From the IMG/VR virus record IMGVR_UViG_2657245112_000033: a stretch of DNA of 7,153 bases; one strand, written 5' to 3'. The notes under the pieces are model-generated. The model ran no database searches. It was not told the DNA's origin and saw only the letters and a program-made list of their open reading frames with translations. Each line of letters begins with the position of its first letter. Within the stretch, counting starts at the first letter, position 1. The position numbers and the translations under genes were made by a program. The DNA comes from a virus (Duplodnaviria > Heunggongvirae > Uroviricota > Caudoviricetes). Below, in pieces: positions 1-7,153 of the stretch.

Positions 1-162
1 TAGCTATAAATACATCTAAATACCTATATCCCTTCCCTTATGGCTAGATTGCGAGAAGTGCTTAACGCGATTTTCAGCGCCCCCCGATCTGGAAAATCCA
101 GAATCCCCAAATATCAGCAAGGAATTTTCTTGCGTAATCAACATCGTTTTTACCTATTAAAT

Positions 163-2001: not shown

Positions 2002-2515
2002 TTATTAATAATATCTTTATAAGCTCTGTGTAGCTCTCTGACGCAAGAAACAGCATTCAGGAAGGGAATCACCTTAGAAAAGTGTTCTTTGCGTCATAAT
2101 GTGTTTTATGAAGGATTCAGAGGTGTTTCATAACAGAGATGTATAGAGGATACTTTAGGTAATTAAAAATAAGGGGTCTAAATGCTTCTCTAACAACATT
2201 AAGCAGGGTAGGGAATGGAAACGCATTGCCTACATATAATAAACTCACTACAGGGCTTTACAGAGCGTTTTATAAAGTGACTCTCTGTTTTATATCTATC
2301 ATCATCTAACAAATACAAAATAAGCCACTTAAATAAGCCTCTGGCGAGCTAAACAGCCATTAGATAAGGGAATGTATTGCTTTTATCAAAATCTCGTTAG
2401 AACGCGTTTTAGAGCGTTTTAGACAATAAGGAAGAATAGCACTACATAGGAGAGCACGAATTGCTAAGAAAAAATGTAAGTGCATGAAAAAGATCAGATT
2501 TTTTATGAAAAGGTA

Positions 2516-2544
2516 TTGACAAATGTTTCTTTATATGTAATAAT
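2516..2544 (+). promoter_or_regulatory. Sigma70-like promoter with extended -10 (TTGACA-17 bp-TGt-AATAAT), probable promoter of the 2656-4950 operon
   Basis: TTGACA at 2516-2521, TG at 2536-2537, AATAAT at 2539-2544. The leader downstream contains a short hairpin (aagcc-gtca-ggctt, 2603-2616) and a T-run at 2625-2635 before the first ribosome-binding site. Confidence 0.55.
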
Positions 2545-2655
2545 AGGTATTAGAGGGACAGAAAAACATTCTTCTCTAAATAATCAAAATCAATGCACTT
2601 TGAAGCCGTCAGGCTTGCAAGGTGTTTTTTCTTTTAACTGAATAAGGAGTTTTTT

Positions 2656-2844
2656 ATGAAATGGTTTACACCTGAGCACGTCGTCCAGGCATTTAAAAAA
2701 GGTGAGCTTACACGCCACCAAGTAGTAATGAATCGTAATATGGCAAGGAGTCGAGGTTATCCAGAGCGAGCAGCTTGCTTCAATGAAGCACTCAAGATTA
2801 TTGATGAACTAAGAAAAAATGAAAAAGAATCTGAAACAGAGTAA
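2656..2844 (+). CDS. Hypothetical small protein (62 aa)
   Basis: ATG at 2656 preceded by AAGGAG (2644-2649); first gene after the predicted promoter; no family recognised. Confidence 0.6.
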   Translation: MKWFTPEHVVQAFKKGELTRHQVVMNRNMARSRGYPERAACFNEALKIIDELRKNEKESETE

Positions 2845-2863
2845 AGAAGAGAAGGAGAAAACT

Positions 2864-3034
2864 ATGAGCGAAACTACAGAAAAGAAAAGACAACCACGCA
2901 CTTGCTTTCATATTCCTGATGAAGTATTTCAGGTGTTATTTAAAGAAGCCAGAAGTAGACGGATCACTGTCACAGATTACATTCTTGATATGTTGAAAAG
3001 AGAGGCTGAAACACTCTCAAATAAAAGCAAGTGA
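2864..3034 (+). CDS. Ribbon-helix-helix-like (CopG/Arc-type) small DNA-binding protein, about 56 aa
   Basis: The track ORF is 2819-3034, but the ATG at 2864 has an AAGGAG site (2852-2857) and lies after the upstream stop (2842-2844), while 2819 has none. The segment RTCFHIPDEVFQVLFKEARSRRITVTDYILDMLKRE fits a strand-helix-helix pattern. Confidence 0.5.
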   Translation: MSETTEKKRQPRTCFHIPDEVFQVLFKEARSRRITVTDYILDMLKREAETLSNKSK

Positions 3035-3087
3035 TTTTTATCACCATAGTAGCGCCATAGAGCGTGATTACATCAAGGAGATTTTTA

Positions 3088-3780
3088 ATGATTAACCAAC
3101 TAACTTTTACAAAACACTATGACACGTTTGATAATGTATCAAAGATTTATTCTGATAAATTCCCTCAAGGAAAAGATTTAGATCTATTACATATTGTGCT
3201 TTATTTTCGATTCCTTAGTTATCAGGAAAACAACCTTAATTGTTATGAAAGTCACGAAACATTAGCTAAGATTTTTAAGTCTTCAGCGTCAACAATTAAA
3301 CGTAAGATAAACGATCTTAAAGAGATGGGATTATTAGAAACATCCCCACATCCTGATCCGTATATTTCATCTTTGATTTACAATGCTCTCCCTCTCACAG
3401 ATGCACATATTACTCCCCCAGGAGAATCATCACTCTCTGATCTTTCTGAGGCAGAAGAAGCACAGGAACAACCTAAAGGCCATAAACAGCCTTCTTTTGA
3501 TGTTCTTGATGATGATTGGGATACGCCTTTACCGTGGGAGACGGAAGAAACACCTGTTTCATCAAGTGAAAAGGTAGCTAATGATAATGAGGAGGATGTG
3601 TTAAAGAATTTTGCCTCTCTTATTATCAAGCAGAAGAATACTAGAACAGGAGGAGCATCATTTATAGAATTTGCAACATCGTTAGCCTATAAGCACAGGT
3701 TAAAGCTACCAAATGGTATTGAGGCATATTTTGCTAAGAAACATCCCAAAGTATACGAAGACTTTGATATTCCATTTTAA
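3088..3780 (+). CDS. Winged-HTH-like DNA-binding protein with acidic C-terminal region ending in an SSB-tail-like DFDIPF; possible replication initiator or organiser
   Basis: The track ORF starts at GTG 3064; the in-frame ATG at 3088 has AAGGAG at 3075-3080 with a 7-nt spacer. The N-terminal part (LHIVLYFRFLSYQENNLNCYESHETLAKIFKSSASTIKRKINDLKEMGLLE) fits a winged-HTH pattern. The C-terminal half is acidic (DDDWDTPLPWETEE) and the last residues are EDFDIPF. Confidence 0.7.
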   Translation: MINQLTFTKHYDTFDNVSKIYSDKFPQGKDLDLLHIVLYFRFLSYQENNLNCYESHETLAKIFKSSASTIKRKINDLKEMGLLETSPHPDPYISSLIYNALPLTDAHITPPGESSLSDLSEAEEAQEQPKGHKQPSFDVLDDDWDTPLPWETEETPVSSSEKVANDNEEDVLKNFASLIIKQKNTRTGGASFIEFATSLAYKHRLKLPNGIEAYFAKKHPKVYEDFDIPF

Positions 3781-3791
3781 TAAGGAGGGTT

Positions 3792-4070
3792 ATGATTCAA
3801 TATTTAGTAAAAAATCAAGTAGACAGAATTCAGTGTAACGACACAGGAAAACGCATCTACGAAACACTTGCTTACCTCTATAAAGGAAAGCCAACACCGC
3901 TAAAATATAGCGATGTGTTACATCGAGCAGGGTGCTCTGAAGATGGTTTAAAATTCTGGCTGAAACAGCTATCAAACTTCGGTGTTATAGAAATTAAAGA
4001 ATTATCTTTCTCTACATTCAATCTCAAAAGACTAGATAAAGAAATAGAATTCATCTATTCCACTCTCTAA
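3792..4070 (+). CDS. Small winged-HTH-like protein (92 aa)
   Basis: ATG at 3792 preceded by AAGGAGGG (3782-3789), 11 nt after the upstream stop. The segment IYETLAYLY...KYSDVLHRAGCSEDGLKFWLKQLSNFGVIEI follows the same helix-turn-wing pattern as the upstream protein. Confidence 0.65.
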   Translation: MIQYLVKNQVDRIQCNDTGKRIYETLAYLYKGKPTPLKYSDVLHRAGCSEDGLKFWLKQLSNFGVIEIKELSFSTFNLKRLDKEIEFIYSTL

Positions 4071-4614: not shown

Positions 4615-4950
4615 ATGAACAAAAACACGTATGACACAATTTACTCACTAATTAATTATTATGAGGATGATTACCTTCTGCCTTTAAACCGCGCTGAACT
4701 TGAAGCATACAAAGAAAACACACCAGCGTCACTAAATGAGGCGTTTAAACACTGGGATTTAGCTGTGAATGCCTTTGAGCACCTCTCTAAGCGTGTAGAG
4801 ATGCTCTGTAAGCGCGAAAACGCATACCTGACAGCCGATCAGATATGGGAGCTATCAAACTGGATAGAAGATATCGAATCTGATGTTCGCTATGTGGGAG
4901 ATGGACTTGTCGAACTCGCTCAACGCTTAGGCACTATCACAGAAGAATAA
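4615..4950 (+). CDS. Hypothetical protein (about 111 aa)
   Basis: The track ORF starts at 4588. In-frame ATGs at 4600 and 4615; the one at 4615 follows GGAG (4602-4605) and the upstream stop (4611-4613), so 4615 is preferred but uncertain. Confidence 0.55.
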   Translation: MNKNTYDTIYSLINYYEDDYLLPLNRAELEAYKENTPASLNEAFKHWDLAVNAFEHLSKRVEMLCKRENAYLTADQIWELSNWIEDIESDVRYVGDGLVELAQRLGTITEE

Positions 4951-5889: not shown

Positions 5890-6918
5890 ATGATTCTAGG
5901 CAATGATTACGTTGATTTGATCCCTCTGTTCCAGACACACAGCACGCGTAACTTCCTGCTCTCTACTCTTGATTTTACGGATTCTGTAGGGGTTACATCT
6001 CATAAAGTAGCTGTTTCCCAGCTTGTCGAAAGCAACGAATCTCTCTTTAACAAAGAGACAAGCCGTTTTAGTTCTGAACACAATGTTACTAAGCGAGAAC
6101 AAGGTAAAGAATGGCTGATCGAGATCCCTTACTTCCTGCGTGAAGATGTGATCCGTCCTTCTGATGTTCAAGGCAAACGTAAACCTGGCACTGATTTCCA
6201 GGAAACACTCACTGATATTTATGCGGAATATATCGCTAAACACCACGTAGCGTATCAGCGTACAAAAGAGAGCGTATTGGCTGCTTCTTTGTTCTCGGGC
6301 AAAACTTATACACCGAAAACTGATGATGTTCTTATCGAATGGGGCAAGCTGTTTAACGTATCAGCTATGAAAGCCACTGTGAACGCTTCCAGCACTGACA
6401 CCACGAAGATTTTTAAAGAATTTGATCAGATTGCTACTGACATTATCGAGAAAGCACAAAGCCAGGCGTCTGCTGTAGAGCGTATTGTTGTTTTCTGTAA
6501 ACCTGAAGCCTTCTCCGCAATTCGATTCTCTGCTGGTATGGCAAACGCATTCCAGTATGTAAGCCCACTGGAAGAGGGGAACGTTGTGTATCAGCGTCGT
6601 GACCTGCTGCCAGGGGTGACAGCGTTCACTATCCCAGGAACTAACATTGATGTTGTTAAACTGGTAGATCCGCTACACCTTGCACATATGACTTCTGATG
6701 CGGTTGCGATTCCGAAGTTTGCTAAAGGCTCTAATGTATATCAGAACATCTACGGGGCTGCTTCCAGCACTTTTGAACTGATCAATGCCGCTCCTGCTGA
6801 GGTGTATAGCTATAGCTATGAATCTTCTCGTGGTGATGCTGTTAACGTTGTTACAGAGAATAGCCAGATGGTTGTAAACCACGGTGTAGGCTTCTCCGTT
6901 CAAATCACTGTTAAATAA
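5890..6918 (+). CDS. Major capsid protein, lambda gpE family (342 aa)
   Basis: AAGGAA ribosome-binding site before ATG 5890. Length matches gpE (341 aa). Several segments resemble my recollection of lambda gpE: SVLAASLFSGKTYTPKTD vs AVSAVLKGKYTMTGE, ASAVERIVVFCKPEAFSAIRFS vs ASGVVNIIVFDPKGWALFRSF, DLLPGVTAFTIPG vs NFLPDNTMVLG, and C-terminal GFSVQITVK vs EFVSVQLA. Recalled, not aligned. Confidence 0.85.
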   Translation: MILGNDYVDLIPLFQTHSTRNFLLSTLDFTDSVGVTSHKVAVSQLVESNESLFNKETSRFSSEHNVTKREQGKEWLIEIPYFLREDVIRPSDVQGKRKPGTDFQETLTDIYAEYIAKHHVAYQRTKESVLAASLFSGKTYTPKTDDVLIEWGKLFNVSAMKATVNASSTDTTKIFKEFDQIATDIIEKAQSQASAVERIVVFCKPEAFSAIRFSAGMANAFQYVSPLEEGNVVYQRRDLLPGVTAFTIPGTNIDVVKLVDPLHLAHMTSDAVAIPKFAKGSNVYQNIYGAASSTFELINAAPAEVYSYSYESSRGDAVNVVTENSQMVVNHGVGFSVQITVK

Positions 6919-6958
6919 TATTTAACGTGTAATAGAGGCGTGGCGCTGAGAGATCCCC

Positions 6959-7153
6959 TCATAATTTCCCCAAAGCGTAACCATGTGTGAATAAATTTTG
7001 AGCTAGTAGGGTTGCAGCCACGAGTAAGTCTTCCCTTGTTATTGTGTAGCCAGAATGCCGCAAAACTTCCATGCCTAAGCGAACTGTTGAGAGTACGTTT
7101 CGATTTCTGACTGTGTTAGCCTGGAAGTGCTTGTCCCAACCTTGTTTCTGAGC
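6959..7153 (-). CDS. Possible 3' end of a convergent gene running off the window (C-terminal 64 codons, unknown function)
   Basis: The minus-strand frame entering at 7153 is open for 64 codons (...GMEVLRHSGYTITREDLLVAATLLAQNLFTHGYALGKL) and stops at 6959-6961. It is absent from the track because no Met start lies in the window. The composition is protein-like, but a chance open frame is not excluded. Confidence 0.3.
   Translation of the reverse strand, partial: AQKQGWDKHFQANTVRNRNVLSTVRLGMEVLRHSGYTITREDLLVAATLLAQNLFTHGYALGKL

Follow-up and report, generated by a model that had tools for sequence, protein, structure and literature searches.

A putative replication operon with an iteron-type initiator in a candidate phage satellite of Escherichia coli

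Genes and sites in the window

The 7,153-nt viral record IMGVR_UViG_2657245112_000033 (the window, meaning the whole stretch of DNA analysed here) carries three small genes for proteins of 56, 230 and 92 amino acids (aa) and, 1.4-1.9 kb upstream of them, a repeat region (969-1439) with five classes of palindromic site. We propose that positions 2656-4070 form one replication/regulation operon of an integrative phage satellite, in which the 230-aa protein, referred to below as Rep, would act as initiator on one of the site classes, the A iterons; for this explanation as a whole we put the probability at about 0.68. Our observations bear directly on the reality of the genes, their folds and family matches, the co-variation of the Rep N-domain with the iterons, synteny, and near-identity to phage genes. 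The features on which the argument draws are given here, with the strand for genes and expression signals; related islands and contigs are cited by our L numbers where they have to be told apart.

969-1070: three B-class sites, GTAACGAnnnGTTAC-like palindromes at 969, 1023 and 1056, predicted cognates of Rep N-type B
1096-1133: two A-class iterons, 17-bp palindromes 21 bp apart (1096 and 1117)
1137-1188: one D-class site, ACAGAATTCTGTTA, and two E-class sites, CCTATCAAnnnTGATA, predicted cognates of N-types D and E found elsewhere
1211-1306: four C-class sites, TAGGAAATGAkTTCC, at 23-35 bp spacing, predicted cognates of N-type C and of the second winged helix (wHTH2) of phage chimeras
1301-1352: AT-rich block (at least 85% A+T) to the left of the tandem A array, candidate DNA-unwinding element
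1353-1435: four tandem A-class iterons in exact 22-bp phasing, TAGGTCAyrGTGAsCTA + GGGGG, the proposed array of the window's own Rep
1436-1510: AT-rich block to the right of the A array
2516-2544, plus strand: sigma-70-like promoter, TTGACA-17-AATAAT with TG, upstream of the operon and conserved in all islands
2595-2640, plus strand: leader hairpin (13 bp) and then a U-run, directly 5' of the first ribosome-binding site (RBS), terminator/attenuator-like
2656-2844, plus strand: first gene of the operon, 62 aa (p62), at the head of a tightly spaced gene train
2864-3034, plus strand: 56-aa ribbon-helix-helix-like (RHH-like) protein, type 0 of three, putative CopG/Arc-like regulator
3047-3095, plus strand: intergenic/RBS/start segment, 96-100% identical to the DNA upstream of the chimeric genes of phages Mt1B1_P17 and BI-EHEC
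3088-3780, plus strand: 230-aa Rep, putative replication initiator of N-type A (profile, model and co-variation evidence)
3184-3387, plus strand (aa 33-100): winged helix-turn-helix (wHTH) of Rep, local model confidence (pLDDT) 84-93 in AlphaFold2 (AF2)
3385-3420, plus strand (aa 100-111): ALPLTDAHITPP segment of Rep
3430-3582, plus strand (aa 115-165): disordered acidic linker of Rep, pLDDT <50
3586-3762, plus strand (aa 167-225): four-helix C-terminal domain of Rep, confident in the AF2 model
3754-3777, plus strand (aa 223-230): tip of Rep, YEDFDIPF, resembling that of single-stranded DNA-binding protein (SSB)
3792-4070, plus strand: 92-aa stand-alone winged-helix protein (p92), type 0 of two (AF2 model)

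All three open reading frames (ORFs) lie on the plus strand exactly where a sequence-only reading of the window had placed three small DNA-binding-type proteins (2864-3034, 3088-3780 and 3792-4070), and a strong Shine-Dalgarno sequence precedes each of them (AGAAGGAGAAAACTATG at 2864, ATCAAGGAGATTTTTAATG at 3088 and TAATAAGGAGGGTTATG at 3792). In a copy of the locus free of insertion sequences (IS), the RefSeq coding-sequence calls are the same three ORFs (WP_000005469.1, WP_000609982.1 and WP_000617148.1). Diverged variants, in which the RHH-like protein is down to 45% identity, the 230-aa protein to 22-27% and the 92-aa protein to 24%, keep all three frames, and the ORFs are therefore genes rather than chance reading frames.

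Profile searches connect the middle protein with replication initiators. Rep matches the PHROG replication-initiation families phrog_270 (E 2.9e-9) and phrog_428 (E 1.7e-6), and further a DnaD-like loader family and O-like families, while none of the curated initiator families (RepA_N, Phage_rep_O and the NCBIfam initiator models) passes for it. In an AF2 model built from 22 diverse family members the wHTH consists of helices at residues 33-47, 56-62 and 67-79 together with a beta-hairpin. The best Foldseek neighbours of this domain in the PDB are the RepA_N initiators 4pql, 4pt7, 4pta and 5kbj (a Rep-DNA complex) and the DnaD N-domain 2v79, with generic MarR, ArsR and Fur regulators ranking lower. 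The family is narrow, with 40 representative clusters among 1.84 billion proteins, and in the alignment of the 22 members the hallmark ALPLTDAHxxPP directly follows the wing.

Most of these members, at a mean identity of 30%, also carry the C-terminal tip [DE]F[DE]x[IL]PF, mostly ending IPF or LPF; one island, L027, has Rep fused out of frame to the downstream gene and has lost the IPF tip. The tip resembles DFDDDIPF, E. coli SSB's C-terminal peptide, which is the docking site of SSB-interacting proteins (PMC3936761). A literature search turned up no precedent for an initiator with an SSB-like tip. We also considered whether the tip might mimic the SSB of a helper phage and rejected the idea, as none of the ORFs checked in phage inny (genus Justusliebigvirus) ends in such a tip. 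The 230-aa protein is most likely an iteron-type replication initiator whose binding sites are one of the upstream repeat classes.

The two flanking proteins are less easily placed, and direct sequence matches in the PDB were found for none of the three. Among nine members of the RHH-like family, five match the 'Arc-like repressor' family phrog_582 (best E 1.3e-3), and the 56-aa protein is 46% identical to inny_185, the product of the gene immediately upstream of the inny chimera described below; the weak-to-moderate reading of these matches is that the protein is RHH-like. For p92, AF2 gives a canonical H1-b1-H2-H3-b2-b3 winged helix (predicted TM-score, pTM, 0.74; core pLDDT ~90). Its nearest solved structure is the C-terminal DNA-binding domain of CodY (TM-score 0.62, root-mean-square deviation 2.2 A, E 1e-3), and similar viral models include many wHTH domains, those of initiator N-domains among them. 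Scans of Pfam, PHROG and NCBIfam gave no match for p92. Its type follows the C-terminal half of Rep and the backbone, from which it is inseparable, and co-variation is therefore unusable for its role.

The sequence-only reading is thus borne out as to DNA-binding folds, which all three proteins have or probably have, by wHTH models (a winged helix in each of the two wHTH proteins) or by RHH profile evidence. Its suggestion that the two wHTH proteins might be paralogous does not hold up: a BLASTP comparison of p92 with the Rep N-domain gives E 1.4 and a profile-profile comparison with hhalign a probability of 1.5%, and the two proteins therefore share a fold class only. Nor is it the case that nothing here can be named, as Rep matches initiator families and shares a cassette of ~380 nt with a phage gene; p92 is left without a family.

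Rep N-domain types and the upstream palindromes

To relate proteins to sites we assigned types in 34 islands, with the conserved 62-aa gene as anchor, and counted sites by k-mers and degenerate patterns with up to two mismatches, an exact-palindrome census having proved too strict. The islands contain five types of Rep N-domain (A-E), three RHH types and two p92 types, and two main types of Rep C-terminus and backbone, one ending DFDIPF and the other IYDSIPF. Every N-type pairs with its own class of palindromic iteron, repeated every ~22-24 bp:

Class A: TAGGTCAyrGTGAGCTA + GGGGG
Class B: GTAACGAtaTGTTAC
Class C: ACCTAGGAAATGAkTTCC
Class D: ACCCCnACAGAAwwCTGTTA
Class E: TACCCCTATCAAnnnTGATA

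A C-rich spacer lies beside the palindrome in classes A, C, D and E. In 33 of the 34 islands the class with the most sites is the island's own, with a permutation p <= 5e-5 that overstates independence because the loci are related to one another and the sites linked with rep. The match between N-type and iteron holds in 11 of the 12 combinations of N-type, backbone and RHH type that were found. Island L006, for instance, has a p62 only 63% identical to that of the window and another RHH type, yet it has a type A N-domain and six A sites. The A array is present in every type A island and absent from type B islands, and k-mers of the A versus D iterons split 11/11 versus 0/9. This is nevertheless the pattern expected of cognate initiator-iteron pairs, and since the classes follow the Rep N-type, the five repeat families would be five alternative specificities of one protein family. 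One truncated island, L007, beside thiM, is without iteron arrays.

In the window the own class, A, is represented by six copies, and sites of the other classes (three B, one D, two E and four C) are stacked directly to the left of the tandem array. Sites of the five classes are far commoner than in shuffled sequence (A, 6 observed versus 0.0 expected; C, 4 versus 0.03), and the A sites at 1096-1133 include the perfectly palindromic TAGCTCACAGTGAGCTA. The four tandem A iterons stand between two copies of a perfect direct repeat of 23 nt, AATAATATTCTTTATACTATATA, at 1332-1354 and 1482-1504, which may reflect insertion or exchange of the array as one cassette or else a duplication of the unwinding element. 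No exact DnaA box was found in the origin region, and tRNA and Rfam scans of the non-coding region returned nothing. In island L023 a 13-nt AT-rich unit, AATACTATAATTA, occurs in at least five tandem copies adjoining C-type iterons (4744-4808); its counterpart in the window is a single degenerate copy at about 1310-1335.

The sequence-only reading had noted that the number of proteins roughly matches the number of site classes, and a model with a separate upstream repeat class for every one of the three proteins follows from it. Three probable DNA-binding folds are indeed encoded together and several palindromic site classes do lie upstream, but classes A-E follow the N-domain type of one protein. 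No specific site class is common to the islands of RHH type 0 or to those of type 1, and B-type islands, in which class B is the single dominant class (4 B sites and no A, C or D sites), still encode all three proteins. The promoter and leader are also invariant across RHH types, being identical in type 0 and type 1 islands, and when the promoter regions are aligned and sorted by RHH type, no change specific to a type appears. An unbiased 10-mer association gave nothing for an RHH site beyond linkage: the best k-mer for RHH type in the 3.6 kb upstream (7/12 versus 0/16) stands out because it is linked to the D-type iterons. For p92, neither the promoter-region alignment nor the upstream k-mer association yielded an operator. 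We therefore regard one class per protein as very improbable. Of the self-contained origin/operator-binding module that had been suggested, the origin-related direction gains from the initiator families, the structural neighbours and the co-variation in 33 of 34 islands, and it is the assignment of sites to proteins that has to be given up.

A plausible mechanism can be put together from these elements. The type A winged helix of Rep would bind the 17-bp palindromic A iterons, probably as a dimer, and the duplex would open at the AT-rich blocks (1301-1510) that flank the four tandem A iterons. The acidic linker would join the wHTH to the helical domain and to the tip YEDFDIPF, seen as a copy of the SSB peptide DFDDDIPF, and the tip may bring SSB-client proteins to the origin (for example PriA, primase or the chi subunit of the clamp loader). 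The 56-aa RHH-like protein is most likely a CopG/Arc-type operon regulator that tunes expression, and p92 could be an accessory DNA-binding factor inherited with the C-terminal half of Rep. The B, C, D and E sites would be targets of the alternative Rep N-types present in sister islands and phage chimeras, and not sites for the RHH-like or the 92-aa protein.

Several points weigh against this proposal. The Pfam HTH_36 match of Rep (E 3e-5) scores 24.2 bits, just below the 25-bit gathering cut-off, and, the wHTH fold being generic, Foldseek gives weak E-values (0.04-0.16). No more than 1.3-1.7 kb separates the iterons from rep, in islands that are related, so that the co-variation is partly linkage, and the window retains arrays that are not cognate to its own Rep (four C and three B sites). 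For the 56-aa protein a PDB profile search was empty and Pfam offers only a FitA-like RHH at E 0.22; its hhalign comparison with Arc, Mnt and CopG is in register at E 2.7e-4 (a single comparison) with a probability of 42%, against reference sequences entered by hand. No upstream k-mer follows the RHH type, and no operator was found for either the RHH-like protein or p92. There is no helicase, primase or loader in the island. DNA binding, replication, origin firing, a function for the SSB-like tip, the roles of the RHH-like protein and p92, and satellite mobilisation are what we infer on top of these observations.

Some of this would suit a different reading, in which the palindrome arrays are operators and the 230-aa protein controls transcription, repressing or activating genes of the satellite, or senses infection by a helper. 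Public records do name the protein 'transcriptional regulator' (the NCBI name, which likewise counts against an initiator) or 'HTH domain-containing protein', the wHTH fold is common to MarR, ArsR and Fur, and the island is without helicase or primase. However, the top profile matches are replication-initiator families, and 4-6 phased sites flanked by AT-rich blocks and 1.7 kb from any gene start look like an origin. An SSB-like tip on an acidic linker has no obvious role in a repressor, and the architecture parallels that of RepA, the initiator of the PLE satellite discussed below. We consider a regulator unlikely and prefer to regard Rep as an initiator.

Island, distribution and phage counterparts

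The operon that would express Rep begins with p62, a gene outside the scope of the sequence-only reading. It is the most conserved of the module, at 58-100% identity with an invariant GYPER..CF..ALKIIDELRK; Pfam, PHROG and NCBIfam scans found no family match for it, and no phage homologue was found. A leader of ~95 nt separates the promoter from the first RBS and ends in the hairpin and U-run (2595-2640; dG -25.1 kcal/mol, z -2.1). Two islands, L008 and L012, have a matched one-base deletion on both arms of the stem, and the hairpin could be an attenuator or small RNA that gates expression of the replication operon. Further upstream there are two copies, ~150 bp apart, of a repeat ending (T)AGAGCGTTTTA (2235-2272 and 2384-2421), which we refer to as F repeats and which are kept in nearly all islands whatever their type; AGAGCGTGATTA in the rep leader (3059) resembles their end. 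AGAGCGT, which occurs in both F repeats and in the rep leader, was considered as a general phage promoter motif and rejected, with only 9 scattered occurrences in inny.

The island as a whole is ~12 kb long and lies between tRNA-Thr and a tyrosine integrase. Its order is ~3 kb of non-coding DNA, the operon of small genes, a capsid gene, a gene for a 609-aa protein and a gene for a Dit-like tail protein (E 3e-29). The capsid gene (window 5890-6918) is of the lambda E type (Phage_cap_E, E 1e-14). Directly after it the end of IS10/ISVsa5 (IS4 family), at about 6930-7153, truncates the island, whereas IS-free copies continue with a 67-aa gene, the 609-aa gene, the Dit-like gene and the integrase. 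Apart from Phage_cap_E, the Dit-like protein, HTH_36 and the integrase, Pfam, PHROG and NCBIfam scans of the island proteins found no family.

Chromosomes of E. coli O111:H11 match the window at 100% identity, and this island is found at ~100% identity in ~245 complete E. coli genomes. Of 5,426 complete E. coli genomes, 1,045, or about one in five and including enterohaemorrhagic (EHEC) O111/O26 lineages, contain a match to the module, at several integration sites, each with its own integrase. The family appears to be confined to Escherichia. Contigs of two metagenome-assembled genomes labelled 'Bacillota bacterium', L011 (JAEYLX010000052.1) and L013 (JAEWTL010000083.1), contain the island at 94% and 63% anchor identity, and their assignment is most likely binning contamination.

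It might be asked whether the three ORFs are simply part of a decaying prophage remnant and lack any current function. The IS10 that interrupts this copy would fit with decay, as would the IS elements or truncations of relatives such as L001, L007 and L008. Against this, the ORFs are intact across variants of 22-45% identity, the island is found at ~100% identity in ~245 genomes with 1,045 matches to the module, each of several integration sites comes with its own integrase, and cassettes have recently been exchanged with phages. A remnant is hardly credible on these grounds, and an integrative satellite is the more probable description.

The probable helpers are suggested by the structural genes. 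Because the island has homologues of the capsid and tail genes of phi92/phAPEC8-like myophages (Stephanstirmvirinae), it is probably a satellite of these phages. In comparison with inny, the head protein is 21% identical to the major head protein inny_96 over its full length, the 609-aa protein is a homologue of inny_105, and the Dit-like protein is 61% identical to inny_106; in island L002, structural genes of this set lie at 21221-23798. We found no paper that ties any satellite to Stephanstirmvirinae. A 37-nt segment, TTGCGAGARGTGCTTAACGCGATTTTCAGCGCCCCCC (window 49-85), is 93-97% identical between many islands (L002, L006, L009, L013-L021, L024, L028, L035 and L038 among them) and a non-coding region of ~40 Stephanstirmvirinae-like phages (inny 138625-138661; Antha 14660-14705), and it is a candidate for a shared cis signal, either a packaging site or a phage-specific promoter. 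A second short match, window 2161-2182 to inny 137363-137384, falls in the same non-coding region of the phage.

Exchange with phages concerns rep itself. Phages inny (inny_184) and Mt1B1_P17 (QNJ49226; two records) encode chimeric proteins in which two HTH_36 winged helices are followed at the C-terminus by a MUG113/T5orf172 domain of the GIY-YIG clan, and BI-EHEC has a full-length homologue. The C-terminal assignment is marginal, MUG113 scoring exactly at its cut-off (E 2e-4, 22.3 bits) and T5orf172 at E 0.025; the domain is 36-46% identical to annotated homing endonuclease and GIY-YIG proteins of T5-like and other phages. The first winged helix (wHTH1) of Mt1B1_P17 is 100% identical to island type D over 104 aa and that of inny 88% identical to type B over 140 aa, and in both proteins wHTH2 has 82-89% identity to type C. 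In L042, a 97-kb viral contig with phage neighbours, wHTH1 is of type A and wHTH2 of type C. Between L042 and the rep of the window aa 1-126 are identical, with one mismatch in ~380 nt from the start codon to codon ~127, and the junctions are sharp on both sides of the shared stretch. Because inny_185, encoded directly upstream of the inny chimera gene, corresponds to RHH type 1 of the islands, the RHH-wHTH pair is syntenic in phage and island.

The phages have the protein domains and lack the arrays. In the complete genome of inny there are neither A nor B sites, nor is there an array of any class; its isolated matches are one C-like site and scattered D/E-like sites at chance level. Queries with A/C/D/E, D and B arrays found nothing in 50,697 phage records, and all occurrences of the exact A iteron are on island contigs. 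The idea that the satellite mimics iterons of the helper's own origin was rejected on these results. We similarly rejected type A as an escape type without a phage counterpart, since L042 carries a chimera of types A and C; for type E, the records searched contain no phage counterpart. It is a complication that the window keeps four C sites though every chimera seen has a C-type wHTH2.

There is a precedent for such a chimera. The Odn protein of phage ICP1 is a T5orf172 nuclease that cuts the origin of the PLE satellite of Vibrio cholerae by means of a copy of the DNA-binding domain of PLE RepA, and PLE RepA/ori modules swap between backbones (PMC8263062). As it shares its DNA-binding domain with the phage GIY-YIG chimera, the 230-aa protein might be mainly a protective decoy, which would occupy the iterons or titrate a partner and so shield the island from cleavage, replication being driven in some other way. 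The 82-100% identity of the phage wHTH domains to N-types A to D, and the GIY-YIG-clan domain joined to them, are compatible with this. However, type E lacks a phage counterpart in the records searched, the conserved C-terminal domain and the SSB-like tip favour recruitment over mere occupancy, and in the homologous PLE situation an initiator faces a nuclease. We think a decoy highly improbable and retain Rep as initiator.

Carried further, the comparison leads to a joint reading that we offer tentatively and hold at rather less than even odds, namely that the module is the satellite side of a second, independent arms race over origin-directed nucleases. On this account at least five types of initiator wHTH and iteron would have arisen by diversification in a very common, apparently undescribed E. 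coli satellite of phi92/phAPEC8-like lytic phages; the phages would repeatedly have captured the same wHTH cassettes, two per protein and up to 100% identical, and fused them to an origin-cutting GIY-YIG nuclease; and Rep would fire the origin by presenting a copy of the host's SSB docking peptide at a specific double-stranded DNA site and so recruiting SSB-client replication proteins of the host, with no helicase, primase or loader of the satellite's own. If true, an SSB-peptide-bearing initiator would be a new route to the start of replication that dispenses with a dedicated helicase loader. The phage chimeras suggest that the Odn strategy, so far known from one Vibrio system, is more general, and the five matched wHTH/iteron pairs make a natural specificity-swap series for the evolution of winged-helix targets. 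A satellite that exploits or blocks phi92/phAPEC8-like phages would affect their host range and efficacy, and thereby phage therapy and biocontrol, because Stephanstirmvirinae phages are popular candidates there.

Comparison with known systems

The replication module resembles known kinds, while the wider system of satellite and phage appears to be undescribed. P4-like satellites are recognised by the alpha primase and by Psu, Sid and Delta. Phage-inducible chromosomal islands (PICIs) typically have AlpA, a Pri-Rep primase-helicase, and TerS or capsid-remodelling genes, and capsid-forming PICIs (cfPICIs) a full HK97 head module with portal, protease and TerS. A search for the hallmarks of P4-like elements, PICIs, cfPICIs and PLEs (PICI-like elements) found no primase, helicase, AlpA, TerS, portal or protease, with no dedicated satellite classifier applied, and the set of structural genes differs from those of the described satellite families, among which we also count PICMI.

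Among initiators, the best structural neighbours of the Rep winged-helix N-domain are the RepA_N plasmid initiators of Firmicutes (pSK41/pTZ2162 RepA) and DnaD-N. The RepA_N family combines an iteron-binding N-domain with a separate C-terminal domain that engages host replication factors. Rep has no significant sequence match to that family, and its C-terminus consists instead of an acidic linker, a helical bundle of ~60 aa and the SSB-like tip. Profile matches to lambda O-type initiators (PHROG 270, 428, 391 and 678) extend over the wHTH and beyond (E 2.9e-9 to 2e-4), and phased palindromic iterons adjoin an AT-rich region as they do for lambda O. Unlike in lambda, however, the Rep iterons are 1.7 kb upstream in non-coding DNA rather than within the initiator gene, no P-like or DnaC-like loader gene is adjacent, and Rep is shorter.

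The order of the genes recalls copG-repB of the pMV158 type, with a small RHH-like gene directly 5' of the initiator gene and probably co-transcribed with it, and the 56-aa family aligns in register with Arc, Mnt and CopG. It differs from these in that no operator was found, the promoter does not follow the RHH type, the turn is without the usual glycine and the fold statistics are moderate. With E. coli SSB, Rep has in common an ending, DFDIPF, that follows a long disordered acidic linker, whereas it lacks the OB fold and would present the peptide on a protein predicted to bind double-stranded DNA site-specifically.

The closest parallel is that of PLE and ICP1. Like PLE RepA, Rep is the likely initiator of a satellite, with an N-terminal DNA-binding domain and semi-palindromic iterons in a non-coding region (binding here being predicted), and pairs of initiator type and origin swap as modules irrespective of backbone. 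As with ICP1 Odn, a subset of lytic phages has a chimera of a GIY-YIG-clan domain and an initiator domain, and the phage itself is without the iterons. The host here is E. coli and the phage group Stephanstirmvirinae, and Rep matches HTH_36 with no match to RepA_N. The E. coli phage chimera contains two wHTH domains (A, B or D, plus C) where Odn contains one, and phage and satellite domains are 82-100% identical, where the figure for Odn and PLE RepA is 42%. Specificity types number five here, with several site classes stacked in a single origin, and an RHH gene accompanies the cassette. Nuclease activity of the chimera and a role against the satellite are predicted by likeness to Odn.

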